Assembly (NCBI GenBank): GCA_030654075.1
Contig: JAURYB010000172.1
Location: 3,285-67,284 of the forward strand
Direction of reading: 5' to 3'
DNA: 64,000 nt
From: Bacteroidales bacterium
Lineage (GTDB): Bacteria > Bacteroidota > Bacteroidia > Bacteroidales > UBA4417
Positions 3,688 through 50,292 of the stretch are shown piece after piece. A program made the translations under genes and the position numbers. The stretch's first letter is position 1. Each line of letters opens with the position of its first letter. The notes beneath the pieces are model-generated. The model had not been told where the DNA came from. It ran no database searches and worked only from the letters and a program-made list of their open reading frames with translations.

Positions 3688-3845
3688 GAATTAAGAACAA
3701 GGATTATTCGCTCATTGCTTATTTTAAAACGTGCTCATGAGTCGCTTCGCTTGTTAACGATTTTTGGTTTTTTGATGTGTGTTGAATATCAATGAATTTT
3801 GCTAAACTTCATAAATCGTTAATCAATATTCCTTGTTCTTAAATC
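3688..3845. mobile_element. MITE-like palindromic element, copy 1 (158 bp)
   Basis: Terminal inverted repeats GAATTAAGAACAAGGA / TCCTTGTTCTTAAATC. Subterminal AACGATTT / AAATCGTT pairing. Same ends and subterminal sequence as the element at 46505-46610. Confidence 0.6.
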
Positions 3846-3905
3846 AAAAAGAAAAATCAAACTTGAACGAAGGAGATAAGCAGTATAATTAATAATTAAA
3901 CCCAG

Positions 3906-33069: not shown

Positions 33070-35274
33070 TTAAATAACATGAATAAGACCAGTTCCATTT
33101 TCCGAAATACGGCCGATTACCACTGCATTTTCTACACCTTGGTCTGATAACTCTTTTAGAACCTGTTCCGCATATTTTTCAGGGATTGAAACAAGTAAAC
33201 CGCCCGAAGTCTGTGCATCGCAGAACATAAGCTTTTCGGTTTCTGAAAGAATGGCATTCCACCTGATCCATTCCTTATAGAAATCATAGTTTCGATGCGT
33301 TCCACCCGGAATAGCTCCGGCCAAGGCGAGTTCTTTAACCTGTTTCATAAATGGTAACTGGCTGAAGACAATCTCTGCATTTACATTGCTTCCGCGTGTC
33401 ATTTCGCTGAGATGCCCGGCCAGTCCGAAACCGGTTATATCTGTACAGGCATTCACAGGGAATTTCGAAAATGCAAGTGAGGCTTTGTGGTTTAGTTGTT
33501 TCATCCATTTGCATGCTTCGGCAGCAGCGTTTTCATCCGCCAGGCCGCTCTTTACGGCTGTAGAAATAATTCCTGTCCCCAAAGGTTTTGTGAGGATCAA
33601 CACATCGCCGGGCTGTGCGCCGATATTTTTCCAGGCTTTTTGGGGATGAACCAATCCTGTAACGCACATTCCGAATTTTGGCTCAGTATCATCTATACTA
33701 TGGCCACCAATAATGCTTATTCCTGCTTCGGTGGCTTTATCAGCAGCGCCAAGCAGGATTTGCTCGAGAACCTCAAGTGGCAGCCGCTGAACCGGGAATG
33801 CGACGATATTAAGTGCAAATAATGGTTTCGCGCCCATGGCATAAATATCACTCAATGCATTTGCAGCTGCAATGGCTCCAAAATCATAGGGATCATCAAC
33901 AATAGGCGTGAAGAAGTCAAGTGTCTGAACAATGGCTTGTTCCTGGTTAATCAGATAAACTGCTGCATCATCGCCCGACGCATTTCCAACCAGGACATTG
34001 GGATCAGTTGTTACAGGAAGATTCTTGAGTATTTTTTCGAGATCAGCCGGTTGCATTTTGCAGGCGCAACCTAAACCATGGGTGAATTGAGTAAGTTTTA
34101 TAGTGTCAGCCGTAACTGCATTCTTTGTTTCGGTTGTAGGAGCGGCTATAGCTTGATATGCTCTGGCAATCATAGTTGCTGCCGATTTCATTTCATCCAG
34201 AGTGGAATATTTGCCGGTTGAGAGCCGTATCGTTCCCATGGCATATTCCGTTGTTACACCCATCGCCAGCAACACATGCGAACTGGTAACACCTGCCGGA
34301 TGACAGGCGGCGCCTGCCGAAGCAGCCAATTCAGGTAAAGTTGAAAGTAAAGTGTCTGCCGGAATACCTTTGAAAGCCACACTGAGTGTATTGGGTAAAC
34401 TCATCTCGATATCAGTGTGGATGTGCATTTCAGGAATCTGTTCCAATAATTCATTCAGAAGCAGGTCACGCATTTCTTTCAGGTGTCTGATGTTTTTTTG
34501 GAGATCGCGGGCAGCAATTTCAGCAGCTTTACCGAAACCAACAATTTCCAGCAGGTTTTCGGTTCCGGCGCGGAGGTTATGTTCCTGTCCGGCGCCATGT
34601 ATCAGGTTATCAAGTACTACGCCTTTGCGGATGTAAAGAGCGCCAATGCCTTTTGGCGCATACATTTTATGACCCGCAAGGGTGAGCAAATCTATGCCCA
34701 GAGCATTAACATCAATTTTAATTTTTCCTGCCGACTGGGCAGCATCTGTATGAAACAGAATTCCATGCTGATGTGCGAAGGCAGCGAGTTGGGCTATAGG
34801 TTGAATGGTTCCAACCTCATTATTGGCATGCATTACAGAAATCAGGATTGTTTGGGGAGTGATTAATTCTTCCAGCTTATCAACTTCTGCCAGGCAATTT
34901 TCATTGACAGGAAGATAAGATATCTGAAAACCTTGTTTATGAAGCCAGGTGCAAACTTCGAGAATAGCAGGGTGCTCAATGGTTGAAACTATGATATGAT
35001 TTCCTTTATTTCGTAAGGCAAAGGCAGCGCCTTTCAAAGCATGATTATCGGATTCGGAGCCGCCACTTGTAAAGATAATTTCTTCGGGCGAAGCACCTAT
35101 CAATGCAGCAACCTGTTGACGGGCCAGTTCAACGGCTTTGCGGGAATCAATTCCATAGCTGTAGCGGCTCGATGGATTGCCGAAATAGGTATTCAGATAC
35201 GGGCGCATGGTGGCTTCAACCTCAGGGTCAATGGGAGTTGTTGCGTTATAATCGAGGTAAATAAGGTCTTTCAT
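33070..35274 (-). CDS. selD: fusion protein: NifS-like cysteine desulfurase/selenocysteine lyase (N) + selenide, water dikinase SelD (C)
   Basis: 734 aa. N-terminal half has class V aminotransferase motifs (YLDYNATTP, HANNEVG, AGHKMYAPKG PLP-Lys, active-site SAGAACH). C-terminal half is SelD (THGLGCACKMQP Cys/Lys loop, DDAAVY, GGHSIDD, PurM-like fold). Confidence 0.9.
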   Translation of the reverse strand: MKDLIYLDYNATTPIDPEVEATMRPYLNTYFGNPSSRYSYGIDSRKAVELARQQVAALIGASPEEIIFTSGGSESDNHALKGAAFALRNKGNHIIVSTIEHPAILEVCTWLHKQGFQISYLPVNENCLAEVDKLEELITPQTILISVMHANNEVGTIQPIAQLAAFAHQHGILFHTDAAQSAGKIKIDVNALGIDLLTLAGHKMYAPKGIGALYIRKGVVLDNLIHGAGQEHNLRAGTENLLEIVGFGKAAEIAARDLQKNIRHLKEMRDLLLNELLEQIPEMHIHTDIEMSLPNTLSVAFKGIPADTLLSTLPELAASAGAACHPAGVTSSHVLLAMGVTTEYAMGTIRLSTGKYSTLDEMKSAATMIARAYQAIAAPTTETKNAVTADTIKLTQFTHGLGCACKMQPADLEKILKNLPVTTDPNVLVGNASGDDAAVYLINQEQAIVQTLDFFTPIVDDPYDFGAIAAANALSDIYAMGAKPLFALNIVAFPVQRLPLEVLEQILLGAADKATEAGISIIGGHSIDDTEPKFGMCVTGLVHPQKAWKNIGAQPGDVLILTKPLGTGIISTAVKSGLADENAAAEACKWMKQLNHKASLAFSKFPVNACTDITGFGLAGHLSEMTRGSNVNAEIVFSQLPFMKQVKELALAGAIPGGTHRNYDFYKEWIRWNAILSETEKLMFCDAQTSGGLLVSIPEKYAEQVLKELSDQGVENAVVIGRISENGTGLIHVI

Positions 35275-35366: not shown

Positions 35367-36413
35367 TTAACGATTAACCATTAACTTTTTCCCCAAGGCA
35401 TGATTCAGAATAATCTCAACATGTTCCTTCAGACTTCCGGCAGCTAAAGGTATTCTTACAATCTCTTTAACCGGACGGCGGACCAGGGAATTAGCGTAAA
35501 GCTTGTCATAATAAGTTAGTGCGATATCAGCAACCTTTTCGAAATCATCATTCTGCAAGGCGAGCAACACTTCGCGTGCCTGGAACGTTCCCATAAATTG
35601 TCCGAGATGCTCAAGTACAGCCTGGAGGACAGGCTTTTCGAAACAGGCATATTCATCGACAAGTCTTTTTATCCGGTAGTCTTTAGGCAATTCAATGAAA
35701 AACAAAGTTCCTTGAAGCATCGCTGCATGAAATGTATCAGGCAAAGTAACAGTTCCGATATTCATGCTTTCGTGCTCAAGCCAGAGCGGCTTTATTGGAT
35801 CAAGTTCAGACCAGAGTGTATAAAGATTATTCTCAAATTGCTCTGTTGTGGGTTGAGAATTCTGTCCGAGATGCCCGAAATTGGACCCTTTATGGCAAGC
35901 AAGTGCCTCCAGGTCAATGATCTGATGACCAAGTTTGCCGATTTCCTTTAGAATCCCTGTTTTTCCTGAACCGGTATAACCTCCTATCAGAAATAGTAGT
36001 CTTCCCGAAGAGAACTGTTTTCGGATATACCCGCGATACGCTTTATAGCCACCCTCGAGCACAAAAACCTGGTAACCGGCTTCCGCAAAAAAAGCGGCAA
36101 TTTTGGCGCTGCGCATTCCACCACGCCAGCAATGCAATAACATTTGTTTATCGGGAGCTACATTCCCGATGGCATTCAGATAGTAATCCGTTTTTTCTCC
36201 GGCAATTATTTTCCCAAGTTCAATGGCAGGCTCTTTACCGATTTTAACATACGTAGTTCCAACCCTGGCGCGTTCGTCGTTATCGAATAAAGGGATATTA
36301 TGAGCACCGGGAATATGTCCCTGCAGGAATTCGCCTGGTGAACGTACATCAATAACAGGAAGGCGGAGAGCCATTAAAAGGAATTGTTCGGGGGAGAGGG
36401 TTTCGGGGGTCAA
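35367..36413 (-). CDS. selU: tRNA 2-selenouridine synthase (SelU/MnmH)
   Basis: 348 aa. Rhodanese domain (IDVRSPGEFLQGHIPGAHNIPL, active-site CWRGGMRS) plus P-loop GGYTGSGKT. The track start is TTG at 36413; ATG at 36374 is possible. Confidence 0.9.
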   Translation of the reverse strand: MTPETLSPEQFLLMALRLPVIDVRSPGEFLQGHIPGAHNIPLFDNDERARVGTTYVKIGKEPAIELGKIIAGEKTDYYLNAIGNVAPDKQMLLHCWRGGMRSAKIAAFFAEAGYQVFVLEGGYKAYRGYIRKQFSSGRLLFLIGGYTGSGKTGILKEIGKLGHQIIDLEALACHKGSNFGHLGQNSQPTTEQFENNLYTLWSELDPIKPLWLEHESMNIGTVTLPDTFHAAMLQGTLFFIELPKDYRIKRLVDEYACFEKPVLQAVLEHLGQFMGTFQAREVLLALQNDDFEKVADIALTYYDKLYANSLVRRPVKEIVRIPLAAGSLKEHVEIILNHALGKKLMVNR

Positions 36414-36668: not shown

Positions 36669-39600
36669 TTAAAATAACTCTCCCGGATTCAGGTTTTTCA
36701 CAGTAATTGTTTCATCCAGATAAACCAACAATTTCCTGATGCCTGGATAACCCATTTGCAGAAGGATTTCACCATAATTGTTTAGCTGAATCTCGTGCCC
36801 GGGTTTTGGTAACCCGGTTTTGAATTCCAGGATTATGGTTTCATTTTTATTGAAAATTACACGGTCGGGACGGAAGACATCACCTTTGGGTGTCAGGATT
36901 CCGGCTTCGGGTTTGAGTTGAACGCTCTCATTGAAATAGTCTTTGAGAAGATCATGGTTGACTGTAGCCGTTACCCTGCTTAACAATAATTCTGTTTGCT
37001 CTTCATCAAGCAGATTAACTAACGCTTGTTTTGCGACAATTTCCAAAATATCATCTTTCGTCCGGATAGCAGCCAATGTGTCGTGAATTAATGTTCCCCA
37101 GGCTTGTTTATTTTTGGATTGATCGGTACTCCAGTAGACCGGGGCACGGCGGGCAATTTTTATCCGTCCCTGCCAGGGCGAAGAAATCATTGAAGAAAGC
37201 ATATTGGATACTGGCAATGGTTCCGCCATCTTCTGAACATGTTCGTCAATGCCTCTGAAATACACATTGCCGTTTTGTGTCCATTCCTCTGAAGTGCTTT
37301 CAATATATTGAGTCAGCAGGTTGGGCAGGTTATTGGCATCGCCATTTCCCGGTTCGCGGGAGATAATATACAAACGTTCTGCTGGCCGGGTAAAAGCCAC
37401 ATAAATCAGGTTGATCATATCCAGCATCGAACTGTTGCGCTCTTTCTGGTATTGGTCTGAATAGCCGACATCTTCCATGCTTAAACCTGTTTGCAAAAGC
37501 GCAACCGGAAGACCGGGAATTACATCCTCTTCCAGATCAACCCAAAGCTGATCGAATGTAGTTTTGAGTTTTTCGGTTGCCATGGGCCAGATTACGACCG
37601 GGAATTCCAATCCTTTGGACTTATGAATCGTCATTATACGGATGGCATCAATTCCTTCGGGGACAACTACTGAAAGTTTGCCTTTCTTTTCGTCCCAGGC
37701 TTCGAGCAGGTCGGCAAGGTGTGTGCCTTGGCGTGCCGAAACTTTATTGGCGAAATCAAGGAAAAACTGTAGATAAATATTATAATCGCCGGTATTCAGT
37801 TCAAAAATGCGGATAATCTCTTCGCAAAGATCATACAAAGGTAATCCGCGTAACGACTTGATATTAAATTCGATATTGCCTGCCGACAAGGCTTTTTCGA
37901 GGGAAAACCGTTCTGTTTTCGAAACAGGGAAATTCTGGATTAACGAAGTGTTTATTTTACCTTTCCGGATAAGTTCGTTCAAAATGCCAGCAACTGCTAC
38001 CAGGTTTTGCGGGTTGCCAATATGTTGCAGAACCGTTACCACAAAATTAACTTCGGGAGATGCGGATAAAAGCAGCGCTTCGGCCGATACCACGCTGATT
38101 CCTTGCGACATCAGGTGGCGGGCAATAATGCTGCCCTCCCGGTTTGATCGGGTTAAAATGGCAATATCTGCATTTGCAAATCCTTTATCATTCAAATCTA
38201 GAACCAAATCGTGAACCCGTTTAATATTCAATTCATCGAATTCTGCTCTTGAATGATAGGGTAGGAATTCAACTGACACAAGGCCTCCCGTTTTATCCGG
38301 CGAAGTTTCCTGAGCATGATCGGTATAAATGGATTGAAATCCGGCACTTAACTGGTTTGCCAGAAATCCGAAAAAATCGTTGTTGAAGTTTATGATTTCA
38401 GGCAAGGACCGGAAATTACTTTTCAGCACTTTAGGATTGTAATTTGTACCAAGCGCTTGTTCCGCATCGCCAAAAACTTCCTTTTCATAATTATCAGGCA
38501 AGGCCGGAAGCATCATAAACTGTTCCACTTGTCCGTTACGGAACCGGTAAATGGCTTGTTTTCCATCACCAACCACCAGGTTATAACGGCCATAAGCCAG
38601 GGAATCGCCAATTAAAGGCAACAGGTTTTTCCATTGCAGTTCCGATGTATCCTGGAATTCATCAATCAGGTAATTGTAATACTTTTCGCCAATGCGTTCA
38701 TAAATAAACGGAACTGGTTCTTTCAGAATAATATCAGTTATCCGCTTGTTGAATTCGGAAATATGCAGAATCTTCTTTTCCCGGCGAATGGTGTCAATTT
38801 CCGTTTCCATGGCACTCAGCACACCCATCTGGAAAATGTTTTTTTCAATCATTCCCAGCAAAGCGTAATGGGTGGAACCTTTTTTCATCAAACCATCGCA
38901 TTGATGATAGATTGTTGTAAGTTGATCTTTTACCGAGTTAATGGCTGATATCTGAATGGTATCTGCTTTGGCCGCAATCCATTTGTTATCATTGATGGTT
39001 GTGAGCACATAACTGTTTGGTGCTGCAATAATGCCTTCGGCCAGTTTGAAAAAATATCCTCCAATACCGCTTGTTCCGCGTGCAAACGAGGCATTATCAA
39101 TGCTGTTGTTGGTAATCAGTTTTTTAGCCGATTGTGCCAATGTGATAATACTGTCTTCAAAGCTTTTACGGATTTGCCTTATTTCGCGGGCAATTTCATT
39201 TAACCGTGCCGGTGGAATTTCGTGTAATTTATTAATAAAATGCTGGCTGCCTTCCGAAAACAGGAAACCGGCCGTTTTTTTGATGTCAGTTTCTATGTTC
39301 CAGCTCTTTTCATCATCGGCTTTGGCTTCGGTAAAATCAACCAGAATGCTGGTAAGGTCTTTATCAACACCTGCTTTGCTGATCAGCTGCTCAACCGCCT
39401 CGTCGAGCATCAGGTCACGGTCCATTTCAATTTCGAAATCAACCGGCAAATGGAGGTCGTGTGCAAATGTGCGAATGATACGAGAAACAAAACTATCGAT
39501 GGTACGAACCGAGAAATCATCATACTCATGTAAAATCCGGGTCAGAACAGCCTGGGCACGTTGAGTTACTTCCTGGGATGTAAAACCGGTTGCAGTTACA

Positions 39601-39848
39601 AGATCGGGCAACATAAATTTTATAACAGCACCATTGGTATGAGTGATCGGATCAGCAAGCTGCATAAGCCCCTGAATGATACGCTGTTTCATTTCGTTCG
39701 CAGCCTTGTTGGTAAACGTAATTGCCAGGATATGCCTGAAATAGGCAGGCGACTGCAAGGCTAATGCAATGTACTCACGCACCAGGGTATAGGTTTTCCC
39801 TGAACCGGCGGAGGATTTATATACCGAAAAATTTTGAGTTATATTCAC
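36669..39848 (-). CDS. UvrD/Rep-type helicase fused to C-terminal PD-(D/E)XK nuclease (AddA/RecB-like)
   Basis: 1059 aa, GTG start. Walker A SSAGSGKTYTLV, UvrD motifs (ITFTNKAANEM, IDEFQDTS, GDGKQAIYRFRNG, TIHKSKGLEF). C-terminal nuclease-like region (RPDRVIF...ILEFKTG). Confidence 0.85.
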   Translation of the reverse strand: MNITQNFSVYKSSAGSGKTYTLVREYIALALQSPAYFRHILAITFTNKAANEMKQRIIQGLMQLADPITHTNGAVIKFMLPDLVTATGFTSQEVTQRAQAVLTRILHEYDDFSVRTIDSFVSRIIRTFAHDLHLPVDFEIEMDRDLMLDEAVEQLISKAGVDKDLTSILVDFTEAKADDEKSWNIETDIKKTAGFLFSEGSQHFINKLHEIPPARLNEIAREIRQIRKSFEDSIITLAQSAKKLITNNSIDNASFARGTSGIGGYFFKLAEGIIAAPNSYVLTTINDNKWIAAKADTIQISAINSVKDQLTTIYHQCDGLMKKGSTHYALLGMIEKNIFQMGVLSAMETEIDTIRREKKILHISEFNKRITDIILKEPVPFIYERIGEKYYNYLIDEFQDTSELQWKNLLPLIGDSLAYGRYNLVVGDGKQAIYRFRNGQVEQFMMLPALPDNYEKEVFGDAEQALGTNYNPKVLKSNFRSLPEIINFNNDFFGFLANQLSAGFQSIYTDHAQETSPDKTGGLVSVEFLPYHSRAEFDELNIKRVHDLVLDLNDKGFANADIAILTRSNREGSIIARHLMSQGISVVSAEALLLSASPEVNFVVTVLQHIGNPQNLVAVAGILNELIRKGKINTSLIQNFPVSKTERFSLEKALSAGNIEFNIKSLRGLPLYDLCEEIIRIFELNTGDYNIYLQFFLDFANKVSARQGTHLADLLEAWDEKKGKLSVVVPEGIDAIRIMTIHKSKGLEFPVVIWPMATEKLKTTFDQLWVDLEEDVIPGLPVALLQTGLSMEDVGYSDQYQKERNSSMLDMINLIYVAFTRPAERLYIISREPGNGDANNLPNLLTQYIESTSEEWTQNGNVYFRGIDEHVQKMAEPLPVSNMLSSMISSPWQGRIKIARRAPVYWSTDQSKNKQAWGTLIHDTLAAIRTKDDILEIVAKQALVNLLDEEQTELLLSRVTATVNHDLLKDYFNESVQLKPEAGILTPKGDVFRPDRVIFNKNETIILEFKTGLPKPGHEIQLNNYGEILLQMGYPGIRKLLVYLDETITVKNLNPGELF

Positions 39849-39938
39849 CTTGCTAAGGTAGGTATTTTGTCGGGAAGGTGTATTTTAGAAATATGGCAAT
39901 TCTACTAAAATGATTATATGATAAATAGGATAAGATTA

Positions 39939-40283
39939 TTATTCTATATCAAATAATTGCTTGATTTTTTTAGAAACCTCGGATTCTAATGCTTTGTTGA
40001 TTGATCCCAGCTTTCTTTGAATCAGATACTTAGGGATAGTTACAATCTTATGTAATCTGATCACTGAATCTACTGTTAATCCTGATCCTGAAGAATTTTC
40101 CGATCCTTTTCTGATAATTAAATCACTGTCATTCAAATCATCAGGCATTTTGCTTGAAATAAAAGCAATTATAACGTGATGATATCTTCCGATTTCTGAT
40201 GTCAGACATAAAGCGGGTCTGACCTTTGAAACTAAAAAATCATCAAACGGAAATGGGACTAGTACAATAGAATTCTTAATCAT
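39939..40283 (-). CDS. mazF: type II toxin, MazF/PemK family
   Basis: 114 aa. VLVPFPFDDFLVSKVRPALCLT signature. Overlaps the upstream antitoxin gene by 8 nt. Confidence 0.8.
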   Translation of the reverse strand: MIKNSIVLVPFPFDDFLVSKVRPALCLTSEIGRYHHVIIAFISSKMPDDLNDSDLIIRKGSENSSGSGLTVDSVIRLHKIVTIPKYLIQRKLGSINKALESEVSKKIKQLFDIE

Positions 40284-40515
40284 TAAATGGTTTCCCGTCC
40301 GTTAAGGAATAAATATTTTCGCCTGGTTCATTTAAAAAATCAAAAGCCGGATTTGAAGCAATCGTTTTCATCCATAACGTCTCTTCGTTAACTTCATCGG
40401 TTTTTTCTTCAACCAGAATTATGACACGAACATTGCTTTCCGGCTTATTTACAGGATAATCTATTTTCAGATACCCGGATTTATCTGTCCGGGCGTTTAT
40501 TTCTATTGCTTTCAT
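40276..40515 (-). CDS. putative antitoxin partner of MazF
   Basis: 79 aa, acidic, immediately upstream of and overlapping the toxin gene. The C-terminal motif AFDFLNEPGENIYSLTDGKPF recurs in small antitoxin-like proteins (from memory). Confidence 0.6.
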   Translation of the reverse strand: MKAIEINARTDKSGYLKIDYPVNKPESNVRVIILVEEKTDEVNEETLWMKTIASNPAFDFLNEPGENIYSLTDGKPFND

Positions 40516-40594
40516 TACATTTTAGTTTCTACAAAGATAAAGAATAAAGTTGCGATATAAACAGGTTAACATTGCCTATAAAATCCTGAATCCT

Positions 40595-40812
40595 ATCAGC
40601 AAGCTGCACAAGTCCTTGAACGATACGCTGTTTCATTTCGTTCGCAGCCTTGTTGGTAAACGTAATTGCCAGGGTATGCCTGAAATAAGCTGGCGATTGC
40701 TAGGCTAATGCAATGTATTCGCGCACCAGGGTGTAGGTTTTCCATGATCCGGCCGAGGATTTATAGACCGAAAAATTTTGAGTTATATTCACCTTGCTAA
40801 GGTAGTTATTTT
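40595..40812 (-). pseudogene. decayed duplicate of the helicase 5' end plus leader (218 bp)
   Basis: Collinear with 39651-39868 at offset 944 bp, no indels, about 17 mismatches by eye. Keeps the GTG (40790-40792) but has GSGKT changed to GSWKT and Leu changed to TAG (..YIALA*). Confidence 0.85.
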
Positions 40813-40921
40813 AACCAAGCTGTTCTGAGTTTGAAAAGTATAAAGCTTGAAAAGAAAGATATAAAAACATGAGTTTTACCCTGATTTTATATTTTGTGAA
40901 GCCATACTTTCAGGCCTGAAT

Positions 40922-43900
40922 CTAATCCTTCCGGGCAGCCTTTTTATCCGGCACTTTTGCCTTCTTTGAACGTTTAAATAAATCCTTCAATCCATTGAAT
41001 TCTTTACGGAAAACAATCCCTACACCCTGCGTATAAGGCGAATATGTTGAATACAGTACTTCGCTGCCTGTATTGGTGCGGTTAAAAGCTTTAAACCGGA
41101 ACCTTCCATCTTCGGTTATTTTTACTTCAACTAATACATCGCCGATAACTTGTTGAGTCGTATTGCTGTATGTGTTCATGCCAACGGCACCATCAATAGT
41201 AACCCTGTTGTCGAATAATTGGGTAGATAGAGCAAGTTCCAGTTCCTGTGGCGAAATCTGGTCGCCGGGGCGATAGTTTACCCCGATGTCAAAATCTTTC
41301 GATATCTGCGAAAGCATCCTGCTTAACTGCGCGCTGACAATTTCATAGGACGAAAAACCCAGTGAAGCTCCTGCCGAAGTGATTCCTGATGAAGAGCTGA
41401 ACGTATTAAGAACCAGCAGCGAAATCATTTGCTGATTCATAGCAAGCGTGTTTGTTGTATCTATGATGCTGAAAATTGTCCGCTTTATTTCTTCAGTCGC
41501 ATCGGGAAGATCAATACTGAATTTAATATCAGGATTATATAAATCATTCGACAAGGAGATTATACAATTCACATTGATACGCTTACTTTTATCTTCGGTT
41601 GATAATTCAGGCAGGCCGGCCAATGAAGTTTTTACTTTGTAAACCGCTTTAAGCTGAATAGTTGCATCATAAGGGCTTCCATTAAAAGTTATTGAGCCTC
41701 CTTTTTGAATCTGGAAATTTTTCTTCAGTATATTTTCGAAATTAAACAGGAAGGTTCCGTTATCCATAATATAATTCCCGTACATCGAATACTCACCACG
41801 GGTATCAATTCCCAGGTTTATAAGTCCATCGCCACGCACATCGATAGATCCCATGTTATATGGCAAAATAATACTCAGGTCGGCATTCCGCTTAACAGCC
41901 AGGCCTAGCTGAAGCGAAAGTACCGAAGGCTCATATTGAGTTACTTTGGCATCTTTATCCGCATCTCCGTGTTTTCGGTAACGGATAAAATTATTTTCCG
42001 AAATACTGCGCGAAAAGCTGATAGGAATTACAACGCTGGTTCCTTTCTCGGAGTTTACATCAGCTTTCAGTACCAGGTCATCCACAGAACCTTTTAGTGT
42101 CATAATACCAGATGCTTTAGCCCTTCCATAATAAATCTCGTTTGGGCTGTATGTTGTATTAAGCGCTGCAAGATTGTCAGCTTTAACCTCTATATCGAGC
42201 GCGATATCCGAAAATGCTTTATGATATATAGTCCCCGTGGCTATTCCTTTGCCAAAAGTTGAATCGCGTAATTCGATATTCTTAAACCACATTTTATCTT
42301 TATCAAAATGATAATCGCCGGTGAAAGAGTATGAAGTTCTAAGATAATCGACCAGTAATTCAGTACGCATCAGTTTTACGGAACCTTTGATTACAGGATC
42401 CGAAAAATCGCCTGTAAGTGTAAGTGCGCCTGAAGTATACCCTCTCATACGCGAAAAAATGCCTTTCAGGAATGGTTCTATGGTTTTAACTTTCAGGTTA
42501 TCGACATCCGCTTTCAGATCGAAATTTTCATGCTCACGTTCAGGATAGATGTTTCCAATAACCTTAATCGGGTAATGAGTTCCCGCATTTCCAACATAAA
42601 CTACTTTCATGTTTATTGCCAGCGCCTTGTTTTCATTATCCCAGGAAGTCTTAATGGCAGCATCACCTAATTCTTCGTGGTTAAACCCAAAATCCTTAAT
42701 TGTTATATCGGCAGACACCCGCGGCACCGAGTACATTTCAGACAAATTTACCTTTCCGTCAATATATCCGTCCAGATCTATTCCTGCTGACTGCCATAGC
42801 ATGTCGAGGTGGGAAATATTAAAATCCTTAATATCAAGCACCATCTGGCTGAGCGGATCGGCCGAGACCGTGCCGTTTAAAATAATGTGTCTGTCGTTAT
42901 TTGTAAACCCCAGGTTCCTGGCTTCGATAAAAGAATTGTCGAATGTTAACAGGTTGTTGGGTATTGATTTCCAAACTGTATCGTTAATCATCAGAACTGC
43001 TTTATCTAATCTTACCAAAAGCTGTGGATTTTGTTTAAACGATATTGCGCCCGTAATATCCCCTTTGTTATGATCAGGCACTTTGCGGTCATCCCAGGAA
43101 ATACCGAACTTCACACTATCGTCGGATGCAACGGCTTTTAGTCTGAACTGTTCAATCCTTTTAAACGTTGAATCGCTGGCTGATGATTCCGACATATCAA
43201 TCTGGCTGCAATCCATTCTCACGGCCAGGCTTTTATTCTCTGTGGAACCTGTCAGAGTCCAGTTACGCATCGATATTCCACTCAAAACTATCAAAGGAGA
43301 TCGACCATTTACATTTACCAGGCCAAGGCCAGGGTCAAAAGTTCCCGAAATAACGGTTTGAGTATTAATTTTTATCCATGGTAAAAACATTTCGGTCAGC
43401 GAATCGGTATGATGCAATTGAATAGTATAATCAAAGCTGCCCCTGTTTAACCTGACAGGAAGCTTTTGACTTTGCGAAAGCGATGGAAGGAACTCAGTAA
43501 AAACCATCTTTAAATAGTCAGCCATATCGTCAAATGTGTACTGACCTGAAAATACAGCGTTCACAAAATCGCTGTTTACCTGCATTCGTTTTCCGCCATT
43601 TGGCAAAGAAGTGGTGCTTACAGATAAATCATTCATTCTAAGGGTTTTGTGTCCCATTGTGAAACTTGTATTGCTGAAATGCAACGCCCCCATCAGGTTA
43701 TCAATAGTGTTGCCCTGGAACCTGAAATCCGTACTTGTTGATAGCAATACTGTGGAATCATTTGTCATCAGGTTGAGTTTCGCCAGGTTGGCATGAGCGA
43801 TGTTGGCCTTAAAATCAAAAGCTGGCAATTCTGCGGAAAAATCAGCAGATCCCAGGAAGTTTAAAGCTAAAAGTTCGTCGTTCACATAAACACCGCCGGT

Positions 43901-45301
43901 AAAACGTTTATGCCTGAATTCCCCGTCAATATTTATAAGTCCAATTGTATTGCCTTCGTATTGCAGATCGGTAATTTCGCCTTTCATCGTAAGATCGGCT
44001 TTATCAAGCGAAAAGTTTTTGCCCTTTATATTAGCATACAGGTTTACTGTGCCTAATTGAGTGACATTTAATATTTTGCCTGCATTAAATTCTTTAACCA
44101 GGATTTCCCCGTTATACTCATGGGTATCCGTTGCTTTGTTGTTGGTTAACAGGATATCCGTGGTAATCTGACCAACATCAGTAACAAATGTTGCTTTGGA
44201 AACGAAATCATTATAAAAACCGGTAAACCGCCCGTTAACACTAACATTTCCCAGTTTCGTAAGCGCGTCAGGCAATACAATTTTGTTGCTTCCTTCCGAG
44301 TATGGAAGCGTAAAAGACTGAACATCAGATACATTTGTATAAAATTCATCTGTTTTCAGATTAATAAAAGTTTCCGCAATATCCGGAAGGCCATTCATGG
44401 TAATATTACCTTTGAAAGAAGTGTGCTTACCGAACGCAAAATGAAAATCCTTGGCCGTGAAGGACGAAACGGTGCCTTTTATATTTCCTGAGAGATCGAA
44501 AATATCAGCCATTCCGGCAATGTCGGGAGCAAAATAAACAATATCCCGCATATCAAGCTGCGAAGGCTTAATGGCGGATTTAATCCGGATACTATCTAGA
44601 AAGTAATTGAACGCATTCCAGTGGTCATACTCAAACTTCATATCCATGGAAAGCCTGCTGTTTTCGGTAGTTAGCTGGAGATTTTTAGCTGATATACCCC
44701 TCGGGCATGCTATGGCCTGGGTAGTAAAGTCATCCAGCCTGAATCCGCTTTTCTCCTTACAGGTAAATTGCTTGATATCGGCCAGTATGCTATCTCCCTG
44801 GAATGAGATATTTTTAACTTCGAGGTTGAGTTGCGAGAAATCCATATCTGAAAAATCGATACCTTTTCCTGGCTTCATGTAGCGTTCATCTCGGAAAGCA
44901 AAATGCGACCCGATCAGTTTTGCATTATCGACCTGGAGCAGCCATGGTTCTGAATAAGTAGTATCAACTACCGGTGATGCGAAATAATCAATAATGAACT
45001 GAAGGTTCAGACTGCTATCGGTTTTGTACTGTATCAGATTTACATCCGCATTAGTGAGCGCTATTGCATTCAATGTCAGATGACGTTTCTTTAAATCTAT
45101 AAATTTAACATCTGCCCTGATTTTGTTTGCCTGTAAGAGCACGTGATTGTGTTTGTCCAATATTTTAATATCAGTAATAACGGCTTCCAGGAACCAGTTC
45201 AGCCTGAAACCTCCGATTGTTACTTCCGTATTAAGTTGTTTTGAAAGATAATTTGCGGCACTGTGAGCCAGAAATGTTTGAACCGGGGCAGTACGCAACA
45301 T
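40922..45301 (-). CDS. tamB: translocation and assembly module protein TamB (AsmA-like, DUF490 C-terminus)
   Basis: 1459 aa from the first ATG. Repetitive beta-rich body. Divergent from tsaD as is common in Bacteroidota. The in-frame upstream sequence (to 45409) encodes the expected signal-anchor KKPVSILLILLLTLLLTPLAAFV but has no ATG/GTG/TTG, so the true start is probably near 45373 (ATC). Confidence 0.8.
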   Translation of the reverse strand: MLRTAPVQTFLAHSAANYLSKQLNTEVTIGGFRLNWFLEAVITDIKILDKHNHVLLQANKIRADVKFIDLKKRHLTLNAIALTNADVNLIQYKTDSSLNLQFIIDYFASPVVDTTYSEPWLLQVDNAKLIGSHFAFRDERYMKPGKGIDFSDMDFSQLNLEVKNISFQGDSILADIKQFTCKEKSGFRLDDFTTQAIACPRGISAKNLQLTTENSRLSMDMKFEYDHWNAFNYFLDSIRIKSAIKPSQLDMRDIVYFAPDIAGMADIFDLSGNIKGTVSSFTAKDFHFAFGKHTSFKGNITMNGLPDIAETFINLKTDEFYTNVSDVQSFTLPYSEGSNKIVLPDALTKLGNVSVNGRFTGFYNDFVSKATFVTDVGQITTDILLTNNKATDTHEYNGEILVKEFNAGKILNVTQLGTVNLYANIKGKNFSLDKADLTMKGEITDLQYEGNTIGLINIDGEFRHKRFTGGVYVNDELLALNFLGSADFSAELPAFDFKANIAHANLAKLNLMTNDSTVLLSTSTDFRFQGNTIDNLMGALHFSNTSFTMGHKTLRMNDLSVSTTSLPNGGKRMQVNSDFVNAVFSGQYTFDDMADYLKMVFTEFLPSLSQSQKLPVRLNRGSFDYTIQLHHTDSLTEMFLPWIKINTQTVISGTFDPGLGLVNVNGRSPLIVLSGISMRNWTLTGSTENKSLAVRMDCSQIDMSESSASDSTFKRIEQFRLKAVASDDSVKFGISWDDRKVPDHNKGDITGAISFKQNPQLLVRLDKAVLMINDTVWKSIPNNLLTFDNSFIEARNLGFTNNDRHIILNGTVSADPLSQMVLDIKDFNISHLDMLWQSAGIDLDGYIDGKVNLSEMYSVPRVSADITIKDFGFNHEELGDAAIKTSWDNENKALAINMKVVYVGNAGTHYPIKVIGNIYPEREHENFDLKADVDNLKVKTIEPFLKGIFSRMRGYTSGALTLTGDFSDPVIKGSVKLMRTELLVDYLRTSYSFTGDYHFDKDKMWFKNIELRDSTFGKGIATGTIYHKAFSDIALDIEVKADNLAALNTTYSPNEIYYGRAKASGIMTLKGSVDDLVLKADVNSEKGTSVVIPISFSRSISENNFIRYRKHGDADKDAKVTQYEPSVLSLQLGLAVKRNADLSIILPYNMGSIDVRGDGLINLGIDTRGEYSMYGNYIMDNGTFLFNFENILKKNFQIQKGGSITFNGSPYDATIQLKAVYKVKTSLAGLPELSTEDKSKRINVNCIISLSNDLYNPDIKFSIDLPDATEEIKRTIFSIIDTTNTLAMNQQMISLLVLNTFSSSSGITSAGASLGFSSYEIVSAQLSRMLSQISKDFDIGVNYRPGDQISPQELELALSTQLFDNRVTIDGAVGMNTYSNTTQQVIGDVLVEVKITEDGRFRFKAFNRTNTGSEVLYSTYSPYTQGVGIVFRKEFNGLKDLFKRSKKAKVPDKKAARKD

Positions 45302-46484: not shown

Positions 46485-46504
46485 AATATCGAAAGATTTT
46501 TTTT

Positions 46505-46610
46505 GATTTAAGAACAAGGATCAACGATTTCTGATTTTAGAAGTTTGCTAATTGCAGTAGATTTTCCTTGACTTCACAAATCGTAAATCAACATTCCTTG
46601 TTCTTAAATC
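46505..46610. mobile_element. MITE-like palindromic element, copy 2 (106 bp)
   Basis: Perfect 16-bp terminal inverted repeats GATTTAAGAACAAGGA / TCCTTGTTCTTAAATC. Subterminal CAACGATTT / AAATCGTAAATCA. Lies between the convergent tsaD and ppnP. Confidence 0.65.
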
Positions 46611-46647
46611 ATTTTCTTTTAAAAGGAATGATTGAATAAAGTTGGAT

Positions 46648-48880: not shown

Positions 48881-50098
48881 CTATTTTTCGGAATTCAAAT
48901 TGACCAGCATTTGTTCTGCAAATTCCTTGCCAAATGCTATCCCTTTATTAATTCCTTCTTCGTGTGGGGTGAATTTAATATACAAACCTTCCCTGAAATA
49001 TTTCAATTTGAGATTGCCCATATTGGACTCAAGCATTTTGGCAGCTTCTCCGCTCCAGCCATACGAACCAAAGGATGAAGCAAGCTTACCTTTATCCCGA
49101 ATGGGATTAATAGCTGCGAATAGCTGGTAAACAGGCATCAGGATGTTCTGGTTAATTGTAGGTGAACCAACCATTACACCGGTGCAATTTGCCATATAAT
49201 ACTCAAGATGTTCCAGCGACATATTTTCAATATCATGAACTTCAACGTGAACTCCCGGAACCTGGCTGATACCTTTGGCAATGGCCTCAGCCAGAGTTGA
49301 AGTATTATGATATGCTGATACATAAGGGATAAAAACCATAGGTTTCTCGCCTAACGAAAGTGCTTCTTTTGCAAACTTTTCGCTCAGATCAACATATTTC
49401 TTCCAGTTGGAACGCAAGATCGGTCCATGGCCAGGACAAACTATGCTGACAGGTAAAGGCCGTATCCGTTCAATGGCCTTCAGCATAAATTTACTGAACG
49501 GTTTCAGGATAACATCAAAATAATACCGGAAAGCTTCGTCCCAGTTACCAACTTTATCGTCGAACATGCGTGAATCGCAATAATGCGCTCCGAATGAATC
49601 GCAGGTAAACAAGATGTTTTCGTCTTCAAGGAAAGTGTAGATGCTATCGGGCCAGTGTAGATTAGCGGCTCCGATTACTTTAATTTTTTTATTTCCAAGA
49701 TCAAGTAAATCGCCATCACGCACTTGCAGATGTTTGAAATCACGGCCAAGCATGTCTTTCAGATAACGGATTGCGTTTCCGCTGCCGACTACGGTAGCAT
49801 TCGGTGCCACTTCGAGCAGCTTGTGTAAACTGCCTGAATGGTCGGGCTCGGTGTGATTAACAATGATATATTCCAGTTCAGCCGGATCAGTGAGCTGTTT
49901 CAGTTTTTCGAGGAAAGTTGGAAAATATTTATCTTTAACAGTTTCGACCAGCGTTTTTTTCTCTGCATTGATGAAATATGAATTGTAAGTAGTTCCATAA
50001 GGTGTATGCATAACCACATCAAACGTAACCAGTTCGCGGTCGAGTACACCAACCCAGTGTACATCTTTGGTAATTTCAAGGATTTTGTCGTCAATCAT
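48881..50098 (-). CDS. fprA: flavodiiron protein (FprA-type A flavoprotein; O2/NO reductase)
   Basis: 405 aa. Metallo-beta-lactamase-like diiron domain with HTEPDHSG plus C-terminal flavodoxin-like domain. Confidence 0.88.
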
Positions 50099-50124
50099 AA
50101 TTTGTTGTTTTTCATTTGTAACCG

Positions 50125-50285
50125 TAGAGACGCGATGCTTCGCGTCTCTATCGGTGATTATTTTTTTGTCTGAAACGCGATGCTTCGCGTCTCTGCGGTG
50201 ATTATTTTTTTTGTCTGAGACGTGATGCTTCGCGTCTCTATCGGTAGGTAATTATTATTATCTGAGACGCGAGGCATCGCGTCTC
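50125..50285. repeat. array of four GC-rich hairpin units at about 46-bp period
   Basis: TAGAGACGCGATGCTTCGCGTCTCTA (50125-50150), gaaacgcgatgcttcgcgtctc (50172-50193), gagacgtgatgcttcgcgtctc (50217-50238), gagacgcgaggcatcgcgtctc (50264-50285, loop inverted). Conserved T-rich linkers tcggtgattattttttttgtct. Confidence 0.9.
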
Positions 50286-50292
50286 TACGATA

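Follow-up and report, generated by a model that had tools for sequence, protein, structure and literature searches.

A toxin-antitoxin cassette between two copies of a helicase 5' end: the probable scar of a recombinational import

How does a small toxin-antitoxin gene pair, with no mobility enzyme of its own, come to lie between two copies of the beginning of a housekeeping gene? The question is raised by a locus in a 64-kb stretch of Bacteroidales DNA, the whole of which is referred to here as the window. At this locus the 5' end of a DNA-repair helicase gene is present twice, once as the start of the intact gene and once as a displaced remnant, with the toxin-antitoxin pair between them. 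The locus looks like the scar of an import by recombination, a type of event already known for "addictive" genes, and not like a new system.

Organization of the locus

All genes of the locus are carried on the minus strand (Table 1). The repeat that first drew attention is reproduced exactly as it was described, with 39651-39868 matching 40595-40812 over 218 bp at a constant offset of 944, with 17 mismatches, no indels and 92.2% identity. Identity is lost on both flanks, the match being stretched by a repeat search only to 223 bp at 91%, and this pair is the sole long repeat within the window. The mismatches are scattered along the 218 bp, and an exact core with divergent arms is not visible. 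In the working copy the 20-bp leader occupies 39849-39868 and codons 1-66 occupy 39651-39848; the reading frame runs on without interruption through all 1059 residues, the length of the orthologues in the related lineages L001 and L003, in agreement with the earlier note, which had proposed that the pair entered the helicase gene at its 5' end and left the downstream gene intact. The upstream copy is dead, as that note had claimed, and carries both G17W at 40744 (GSGKT to GSWKT) and L31* at 40701 (to TAG), plus I40T. These three changes are specific to the remnant when set against 22 orthologues, and polarisation with the same orthologues places V58I and V62M as derived in the working copy. 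The remnant was also rightly said to keep the original upstream region, and the native spacer attached to it aligns with the empty site of L001. For annotation, 40595-40812 is a pseudogene remnant of the helicase 5' end, and the helicase itself is intact.

Table 1. Features of the locus, in window coordinates.
Feature	Position	Strand	Evidence or remark
UvrD/RecB/AddA-like SF1 helicase, 1059 aa, GTG start at 39848, intact	36669..39848	-	PF00580 (E 2e-34), PF13361, PF13245, PF13538
Working copy, helicase leader and codons 1-66	39651..39868	-	Runs on into the intact 1059-aa ORF
Cassette 3' spacer, toxin stop to helicase leader	39869..39938	-	Common to L006, L200, L201
PemK/MazF-family toxin, 114 aa	39939..40283	-	PF02452, E 9e-13
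Antitoxin, 79 aa	40276..40515	-	Upstream of toxin, 8-bp overlap
Cassette 5' spacer with own putative promoter	40516..40594	-	-7 box
Remnant (pseudogene) copy, 20-bp leader and codons 1-66	40595..40812	-	Junction to cassette in a contig of run X3 and in L006, L200, L208
Native tamB-helicase spacer, joined to remnant	40813..40921	-	77% identity to the 110-bp empty-site spacer of L001
TamB-like gene, 1459 aa, upstream neighbour in the direction of transcription	40922..45301	-	PF04357 (TamB), E 1e-53

The helicase has the N- and C-terminal domains of UvrD-type SF1 enzymes. Its best NCBIfam match, over the full length, is to the RecB-like helicase model NF010485 at 273 bits (cut-off 650), the addA models score 114-140 bits (cut-offs above 700), and no nuclease domain is matched in Pfam at E <= 0.01. 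The neighbouring tamB gene is 92% identical in DNA sequence to that of L001, the nearest relative on this side of the locus. Between the two helicase copies lies an insert of 726 bp (39869-40594) whose only contents are an antitoxin gene and a PemK/MazF toxin gene, and its GC content is 28-36%, against 39-48% in the flanks; the earlier description of an AT-rich segment holding nothing but a toxin-antitoxin pair is thus borne out by the list of open reading frames, by Pfam and by base composition.

The predicted toxin belongs to the PemK/MazF family (PF02452) on the evidence of the family model and the two-gene operon, with a score of 48.8 bits (cut-off 23.1) and residues 5-111 of 114 aligned to profile positions 4-109 of 109. 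A profile of 23 of its homologues matches the solved chains of MazF, PemK and EndoA (E 7e-4 to 8e-3), and the single sequence gives no match to solved structures. Homologues with E <= 1e-20 number 927, and the exact toxin sequence of the window has no record in the assembly index. As in the type II systems MazEF and PemIK (Kis-Kid), a toxin of the PemK_toxin Pfam family that resembles these structures is preceded and overlapped by its antitoxin gene, and in 80 of 80 family loci the antitoxin accompanies the toxin, complete in about 75. Unlike the antitoxins of those systems, that of the window has no MazE/AbrB (SpoVT-AbrB) match in Pfam at E <= 10, where a chance match to Surp is all that appears, and assignment to the MazE/AbrB type was rejected for want of any family-model match. 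Over residues 1-46 this antitoxin shows similarity to the RelN-family N-terminal domain (NF050107, 36.8 bits, under the cut-off of 70), which is its sole match in NCBIfam. Toxin activity and addiction are predicted from family membership and motifs.

The earlier note further suggested that the pair might be driven by the former helicase promoter, and the helicase by read-through or a new promoter. Of this proposal the second half stands as plausible and the first half does not. A Bacteroidota-type -7 box, TATCTTTG, lies at 40532-40539, 16 nt ahead of the antitoxin ATG; TAnnTTTG has no other exact match on the minus strand within 39600-41000, and most of the 80 family loci have a box of this type at the corresponding place ahead of the antitoxin. 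With this conserved box of its own the cassette would not need the former helicase promoter. The native spacer lacks both an exact TAnnTTTG box and a terminator-like site on its minus strand, and the cassette 3' spacer has no terminator-like site, no exact -7 box and no stable fold. Read-through into the helicase is plausible because the stretch from the end of the toxin gene to the start of the helicase has neither a -7 box nor a terminator-like site, and helicase transcription probably now comes from the cassette promoter and/or tamB by read-through. A scan of metagenomes with a 23-base promoter pattern returned one chance match (L199), which is not a toxin-antitoxin locus.

Empty sites, shared junctions and parallels in the family

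The site between tamB and the helicase is empty in most relatives. Comparison with cassette-free relatives, which the earlier note had proposed as a check, defined this empty site in L001 and at least 11 others as tamB, 110-130 bp of spacer and the helicase, with the 218 bp present once (L001-L005, L007, L009, L010, L017, L021, L025 and L026), and empty-site joints were also found in metagenome contigs. Where the cassette is present its joints recur. The window shares the remnant-to-cassette junction with L006, L200 and L208 and the cassette-to-leader junction with L006, L200 and L201, and such sharing by five lineages points to a single origin of the insertion. The similarity of the L201 upstream spacer was judged by eye only. 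Scanning of the genome collection with an 18-base junction pattern gave 38 matches, by estimate about the number expected by chance, one of which, on the L006 contig, was recognised as real.

Divergence along the locus is uneven. Over ten pairs, dS is 0.25-0.96 for the cassette, 0.67-1.44 for helicase codons 67-350 and 1.8-2.3 for tamB; since the cassette value lies below those of the flanking genes in every pair compared, usually 2-6 fold, the cassette spread laterally. Identity of the window to L001 is 92% towards tamB and about 85% towards the helicase, and comparison with L003 gives the opposite pattern, with 76% on the tamB side and 87% on the helicase side. The window's own donor is not among the lineages sampled, and all close relatives are metagenome assemblies. 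A possible donor context is seen in L023, in which a decayed cassette lies directly upstream of the helicase with a different gene further upstream and no remnant, so that homology on the left-hand side would be absent. A sharp drop in synonymous divergence would be expected had the arm of codons 1-66 shuttled with the cassette; across lineages, codons 1-66 give only a weak and gradual difference, with no edge at codon 66.

The search for similar cassettes with flanking repeats elsewhere, also among the checks proposed, extends these observations to the family. Flanking direct repeats were found at 16 of 70 family loci and at 4 of 236 control segments (P 3e-8), the controls being random segments of the same loci and not other accessory genes. 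The repeats are 36-314 bp long and 78-99% identical, and several are the ends of host genes. Targets differ between lineages, being the helicase 5' end, the metY 3' end or the sulfatase 3' end with no core in common, and the boundaries of the cassette relative to the toxin-antitoxin genes vary across the family. Third positions account for 8 of 9 differences between the copies at the metY 3' end in L092 and, among isolates, for 32 of 51 and 38 of 58 at the sulfatase 3' end in Cyclobacterium plantarum GBPx2 and C. salsum SYSU L10167, respectively. The closest relatives of these Cyclobacterium have empty sites, and between the two species the cassette, remnant and downstream flank are 96-99% identical, whereas the intact gene ends are only 87% identical. 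At L137, tyrosine-recombinase-like and IS91-like ORFs, recognised by eye from their translations, lie about 600 bp past the last repeat, and at L132 a family member sits in an integron-type cassette array.

Two alleles or a decayed duplicate

The repeat was at first read as a direct duplication made in place, in which a staggered break or a replication-based event doubled the resident 218 bp, the upstream copy then decaying under selection for the downstream one. Several features are of the kind that such an event would leave, including the exact, indel-free register of a repeat that covers leader and start codon, a single-copy empty site that aligns to both copies, and the likeness to the variable-length long repeats that lie over translation starts and stops, without mobility genes, as a footprint of restriction-modification systems (PMC2853133). 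The nature of the differences speaks against it. Remnant and working copy differ at codon positions 1/2/3 by 3/2/11 in the window (11 of 16 synonymous third-position), by 4/2/23 in L201 (23 of 29, with 22 synonymous and 5 non-synonymous codons) and by 0/0/5 in L200 (5 of 5, all synonymous), and even against free decay of one copy the third-position bias has P values of 0.04, 1e-4 and 0.016, respectively. The excess of third-position or synonymous differences extends to L092 and L136/L140. Remnants of different genomes, moreover, form no common grouping. The window remnant has about 7 changes of its own in 218 bp, and the L201 remnant retains an open 65-aa ORF; on an estimate from the cassette dS of 0.25-0.96, change in the remnants falls far below the neutral decay expected over the time implied. 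The two copies in L201 also differ in their nearest relatives, the cassette, working 5' end and downstream helicase being nearest to L006 and the remnant to L001, the window and L003. Duplication in place is unlikely for these reasons, although it could still describe the founding event. On account of the synonymous third-position bias, the ungrouped remnants and the small amount of decay, the two copies resemble alleles, each with its own past as a working gene. Variation among the 22 orthologues is too high for most synonymous sites to be polarised, and as the 218 bp are short and third positions near saturation in the outgroups, polarising the 17 differences cannot tell which copy was resident.

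The explanation that we consider probable is a homology-anchored import of the cassette by recombination, with displacement of one gene end. A type II cassette of about 0.7 kb, comprising its own promoter, antitoxin and toxin, would have entered a variable spot between tamB and the helicase on donor DNA in which it was joined to a helicase 5' end. One crossover inside the helicase gene would have provided the homologous anchor, and the second joint would have fallen out of register, by illegitimate joining when the insertion was founded and inside the existing remnant in subsequent transfers, with the outcome that one gene end would be pushed upstream to become a pseudogene and an intact gene would be kept downstream. 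Donor DNA paired out of register in transformation is known to yield duplications (PMC3784515). The cassette and its junctions would then have moved between Lentimicrobiaceae lineages by recombination, and in at least some of these transfers a working allele would have been turned into a new remnant. Nearly the same product could come from an excised circle through a Campbell-type single crossover.

Remnants might also look young if the working copy had repeatedly overwritten them by gene conversion within the genome, so keeping an old duplication alike. The L200 remnant, which is chimeric, is 96% identical to its own gene over its first 138 nt, differing there at 5 synonymous sites only, and then passes at a sharp edge into an old tail, the last 30 nt or so beside the cassette being about 30% diverged with an indel (Fisher P 8e-6), a structure that counts for the import reading and that conversion could also leave; to the window remnant, too, its own gene and the nearest of the other genomes are about equally close. 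Changes arising after conversion would, however, be expected at all codon positions, and the five of L200 are all synonymous third-position changes (P 0.016), while the L201 remnant, at no more than about 85% identity to its own gene, is nearer to other lineages, which makes conversion improbable as the general explanation. In the window remnant a chimeric signature of the L200 type is unsupported, differences numbering 4 of 27 in the cassette-side tail and 13 of 191 in the rest (P 0.24).

Equally improbable is a miniature integrative element, CIME-like or a decayed island, mobilised by a recombinase in trans, whose repeats would be attL and attR and which would carry a replacement gene end. 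It would account for allele-like gene-end repeats and a preserved target gene, and the recombinase-like and IS91-like ORFs near L137 are in its favour; yet no recombinase lies within or adjoining the 726-bp insert, the lineages have unrelated targets and repeats of widely differing length with no shared core, cassette boundaries vary, and the 218 bp have no exact core with divergent arms. An integron gene cassette was rejected, the repeats being helicase coding sequence and the neighbours housekeeping genes; the cassette spacers gave no attC-like fold, neither folding better than its shuffles (z -0.4 to +1.2). A transposon or insertion sequence was likewise rejected, with no inverted repeat around the insert, no transposase ORF and family repeats that range from 36 to 314 bp.

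Finally, an assembly artefact, in which a metagenome contig would contain a repeat that was wrongly joined or collapsed, is effectively refuted, even though the window is apparently from an uncultured organism whose close relatives in the genome collection are all metagenome-assembled genomes, and the runs that contain it are environmental metagenomes only, for the copies differ at 17 sites and cannot be a single collapsed sequence, and the same architecture is found in four further assemblies from different projects (L006, L200, L201 and L208). Both cassette junctions are backed by independent contigs and runs, with Logan contigs from runs X1 and X2 spanning 39842-40160 with 5 differences and one from run X3 spanning 40562-40762 with 2 differences. 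The earlier note had held that the same arrangement without decay in relatives would betray an artefact. L201 is indeed free of inactivating lesions, but its two copies are only about 85% identical, and it is therefore no collapsed repeat.

Relation to known systems and significance

Parallels with the insertion with long target duplication known from restriction-modification gene complexes (Nobusato et al. 2000, as cited in Furuta, Abe and Kobayashi 2010, PMC2853133) are instructive. That event is recognised by an insert of less than 20 kb that has no mobility genes and lies between direct repeats of more than 30 bp, themselves present once at the empty site, and in insert size, repeat length and single-copy empty site the locus conforms. 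Both concern small addiction gene pairs without mobility genes, bounded by repeats of variable length above 30 bp that are single at the related empty site and often lie over a translation start or stop, so that the target gene stays intact, and in both flanking repeats are significantly commoner than around other genes or, here, in control segments. In the restriction-modification examples of H. influenzae and T. thermophilus the repeats are nearly identical (44/46 and 47/47), and double-strand breakage by the element is suggested by those authors as the common cause (PMC2853133). Here, in contrast, the repeats across the family differ mainly at synonymous sites, as alleles do; their allele-like divergence and the different nearest relatives of the L201 copies do not fit derivation from the resident target. 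The cargo is an RNase-type toxin-antitoxin pair and not a DNA-cutting one, and breakage made by the element therefore cannot be the cause here.

A second parallel is with displacement arrays built by homology-facilitated illegitimate recombination, such as those of orphan immunity genes and effector or Rhs 3' ends (Kirchberger et al. 2017, PMC5361080). There, too, a stretch of a conserved resident gene anchors the incoming DNA, a non-homologous part is added, the old gene end is pushed aside as a fragment, and the process is repeatable. The differences are that the displaced piece in the window is the 5' end of a housekeeping helicase, with the 3' end of a metabolic gene elsewhere in the family, and that the added toxin-antitoxin module is functionally unrelated to the anchor gene.

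Phage 21 and e14, which integrate at icd, carry a replacement end of the target gene, and elements of this type have an integrase gene of their own and integrate at a defined att core. As at the present locus, a host gene end and an element-borne copy with mostly synonymous differences leave the gene functional. The present locus differs in that its 726-bp insert holds only toxin-antitoxin genes, and related cassettes have hit unrelated targets.

The locus shows cleanly, in nature, how a small selfish gene pair enters and stays in a chromosome without a mobility enzyme, with comparators at hand in the empty sites, the five junction-sharing lineages and independent parallels in cultured Cyclobacterium species. 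Simple counting of differences by codon position tells a duplicated target from two alleles, and is applicable to the older restriction-modification cases. Recombination between the repeats would excise the cassette exactly, leaving the empty site as it was before; the labile antitoxin would then be lost, the toxin activated and the deletants selected against. Addiction of this kind probably blocks deletion between the repeats, and would explain the persistence of repeat-flanked structures around this toxin-antitoxin family. That the long-repeat footprint also marks an RNase-type family argues against DNA cutting by the element as its cause, and points instead to the recombination route together with selection against loss. 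A distinctly tentative extension is that the family is a transposase-free mobile element, in which a fragment of a conserved host gene travels along as portable homology arm for RecA-dependent insertion, out of register or Campbell-type, into any genome with that gene, the gene is left intact, and addiction blocks the reverse reaction between the repeats. If this were true also of restriction-modification systems, insertion with long target duplication would in all these cases be due to addiction and not to DNA cutting.

Organization of the locus and its toxin-antitoxin genes

Every gene of the region lies on the minus strand, and the 726-bp cassette sits between tamB and the helicase gene, bracketed by a direct repeat of the helicase 5' end. 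The earlier note's description of this arrangement is right in all details: the two 218-bp copies align in perfect register at an offset of 944, with 17 mismatches and no indels; each consists of a 20-bp leader and codons 1-66 of the helicase, and the upstream copy, hereafter the remnant, carries G17W within the Walker A motif and TAG in place of L31. The GC content of the insert is 28-36%, against 39-48% in its surroundings. The 20-bp leader preceding the helicase GTG start codon (39849-39868, AAAATACCTACCTTAGCAAG) is near-invariant among relatives that differ by 15-25% in their coding sequences, and this suggests a conserved element that may act in translation initiation or regulation.

Features of the tamB-helicase region in the window, with an alternative occupant of the same spot in a relative
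Feature	Position	Strand	Remark
TamB-like gene	45301 to 40922	minus	first in transcription order
Spacer, tamB to remnant	40921 to 40813	minus	109 bp
Upstream copy of 218-bp segment	40812 to 40595	minus	
Cassette 5' spacer	40594 to 40516	minus	79 bp
Antitoxin ORF	40515 to 40276	minus	79 aa
PemK/MazF toxin	40283 to 39939	minus	114 aa
Cassette 3' spacer	39938 to 39869	minus	70 bp
Downstream copy of 218-bp segment	39868 to 39651	minus	
Remainder of UvrD/RecB-like helicase	down to 36669	minus	whole helicase 1059 aa
Alternative small gene, example	L020:5443-5802		between tamB and helicase

An assembly artefact, whether mis-assembly or the collapsed repeat of which the earlier note had warned, is ruled out by Logan contigs of independent metagenome runs that span the joint between cassette and helicase (X1 and X2; 39842-40160, 5 differences) and the remnant-to-cassette junction (X3; 40562-40762, 2 differences), and by the same order of parts in four other assemblies, the Lentimicrobiaceae metagenome-assembled genome L006 and the JGI metagenome contigs L200, L201 and L208.

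The toxin scores above the Pfam PemK_toxin threshold, and its family profile matches solved MazF, PemK and EndoA chains. Family-model searches with the antitoxin returned no MazE/AbrB match; over the N-terminal 46 residues it is similar to RelN-type antitoxins, at a score below the cut-off. The two genes, with their 8-bp overlap, occur together in 80 of 80 genomes examined from several phyla, and the system appears to be a conventional PemK/MazF-type module whose antitoxin is not of the MazE type. Because a conserved Bacteroidota-type -7 box (TAnnTTTG; TATCTTTG at 40532-40539 in the window) precedes the antitoxin start by 15-20 nt in most of the 80 genomes, the cassette is predicted to have its own promoter. 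Neither the stretch from toxin stop to helicase start nor the native tamB-helicase spacer contains an exact -7 box or a terminator-like site, and we infer that transcription from the cassette probably reads through into the helicase.

The 218-bp pair is the sole long repeat of the 64-kb window. Smaller repeats occur elsewhere: at 50106-50306, intergenic and just upstream of a flavodoxin/metallo-beta-lactamase-fold gene (48881-50098, minus strand), stand three tandem 45-bp units, each with the palindrome GAGACGCGATGCTTCGCGTCTC, and a fourth, inverted copy. A sequence of about 60 nt recurs with 82% identity 42.7 kb apart (3785-3853 and 46497-46611), the latter as an inverted pair just after tsaD; it could represent either a terminator common to both places or a small palindromic repeat element. 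At 33070-35274 (minus strand) a 734-aa fusion joins class-V aminotransferase (cysteine desulfurase-like) and AIR-synthase-related (SelD/ThiL-like) domains, and adjoins a rhodanese-domain gene (35367-36413).

History of the tamB-helicase site

Relatives of the helicase are numerous in metagenome-assembled genomes of Lentimicrobiaceae and Bacteroidales, and all the close relatives compared are metagenome assemblies. The comparison with cassette-free relatives that the earlier note proposed yields an empty site in 12 of them (tamB, 110-130 bp, helicase, with the 218 bp in single copy), including L001, the nearest to the window on the tamB side. In six others (L008, L013, L020, L022, L027 and L029) the spot holds a different small gene without helicase repeat flanks, whose product, a secreted-type protein unrelated to the cassette, has 115-134 aa (309 aa in L029), begins like a signal peptide and contains recurrent 'DDIPFNT' motifs; the spacer is thus a variable hotspot for small inserts.

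The cassette itself occupies the spot in the window, L006, L200, L201, L208 and one more JGI contig. Since the remnant-to-cassette junction is common to the window, L006, L200 and L208, and the cassette-to-leader junction to the window, L006, L200 and L201 (the likeness of the L201 upstream spacer being judged by eye only), the junctions point to one founding event. The remnant ranges from an open 65-aa ORF in L201, through the two lesions (G17W, L31*) and I40T of the window and a stop codon with a decayed tail in L200, to fragments of 53 bp in L006 and about 25 bp in L208. In L023 (5520-6000) a decayed cassette, with its promoter box kept, its antitoxin frameshifted and its toxin mostly deleted, lies directly upstream of the helicase beside another upstream gene and with no remnant; this is an instance of toxin-antitoxin decay and possibly an ancestral context.

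The earlier note took the upstream copy for a dead half of a direct duplication. Duplication in place followed by free decay of that copy would be expected to spread differences across codon positions, with a third-position share of about 0.44 (our own estimate) when the other copy is under selection. In the short segment compared, where third positions are saturated among outgroups, the counts of differences by codon position (1/2/3) are instead 3/2/11 in the window (P 0.04 against that share), 4/2/23 in L201 (22 synonymous and 5 non-synonymous codons; P 1e-4) and 0/0/5 in L200 (P 0.016). Remnants from different genomes do not group together. The cassette, working 5' end and downstream helicase of L201 are all nearest L006, whereas its remnant is nearest L001, the window and L003, so that its two copies have different nearest relatives, contrary to decay in place. 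The L200 remnant is chimeric, with 138 nt 96% identical to its own gene and the last ~30 nt beside the cassette about 30% diverged and with an indel (P 8e-6). About seven changes across the 218 bp are private to the window remnant, by estimate far below free decay over the time of cassette-lineage divergence. From these patterns the two copies are best read as alleles rather than a decayed duplicate, and the remnants probably arose, or were renewed, from working alleles at a time considerably later than the founding event.

Synonymous divergence of the cassette (0.25-0.96) is below that of its flanks (0.67-1.44 for helicase codons 67-350, 1.8-2.3 for tamB) in every one of the ten pairs of cassette-bearing lineages. 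Identity between the window and L001 is ~92% in the tamB flank and ~85% in the helicase flank, a pattern reversed for L003 (76% and 87%). From these two patterns the cassette is younger than its surroundings and has moved between lineages by recombination at the tamB-helicase site, which is a recombination breakpoint.

Proposed import by recombination and probable cause of the persistence of the repeats

In the proposed import, donor DNA made up of an old remnant tail, the cassette, and the helicase 5' end and beyond would enter a cassette-free recipient. The right-hand crossover would fall inside the helicase gene; at the left-hand joint, which in the founding event would have been illegitimate (homology-facilitated illegitimate recombination), the remnant tail would pair out of register with the recipient's own helicase 5' end. 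By ordinary replacement the recipient's leader and first ~66 codons would stay upstream as a new remnant, and the donor's working 5' end would be installed downstream. Such an import would explain the allele-like differences, the native spacer still joined to the remnant, the chimeric L200 remnant, the split ancestry of L201 and the survival of an intact gene. As a possible alternative to the favoured import, integration of an excised circle by a Campbell-type crossover would lead to almost the same structure. Related processes have been documented or proposed (PMC5361080, PMC3784515, PMC3240628).

[quoted passage not shown] For those systems the element's own DNA breakage has been suggested as the common cause (PMC2853133), whereas an RNase-type toxin cannot break DNA, and the repeats at the helicase site appear to be alleles rather than duplicates.

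Flanking duplications, which the earlier note suggested seeking at other cassette loci, do occur there: 16 of 70 family loci are flanked on both sides by direct repeats no more than 600 bp away, against 4 of 236 size-matched control segments from the same loci (P 3e-8). They fall into two classes, host-gene ends and structured palindromic repeats in multi-cassette arrays. The former comprises the metY 3' end in L092 and apparently L089, a sulfatase 3' end in two Cyclobacterium isolates (L136 and L140), and repeats in L137 and L109; those of L092 and of L136/L140 show third-position bias. The four nearest relatives of the Cyclobacterium pair have empty sites. Between the two species, identity is 96-99% over cassette, remnant and downstream flank taken together, against only 87% for the intact gene ends, a split history of the kind met at the helicase site. 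In L137 (2900-7000) the 3' end of a 773-aa gene is present three times, the copies separating the cassette from a 77-aa ORF that seems DUF433-like. A split tyrosine-recombinase-like ORF and an IS91-like transposase ORF follow after a further ~600 bp, and the layout suggests that insertions took place in series at a single gene end. In L132 (1300-5500), a Sunxiuqinia metagenome-assembled genome, the pair belongs to an array that comprises four or more small two-gene, toxin-antitoxin-like modules. Between the modules lie repeats of 75-120 nt, for which the fold is a long imperfect hairpin (about -33 kcal/mol); the array looks integron-type, with no integrase nearby within the stretch examined.

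Direct repeats of 218 bp would invite RecA-dependent deletion, which would restore the exact empty site, and deletants that lost the toxin-antitoxin pair should suffer toxin activation. We infer that the repeats persist owing to selection against deletion, exerted through the pair that lies between the copies, and the enrichment of repeats around family loci is in line with toxin activation in deletants.
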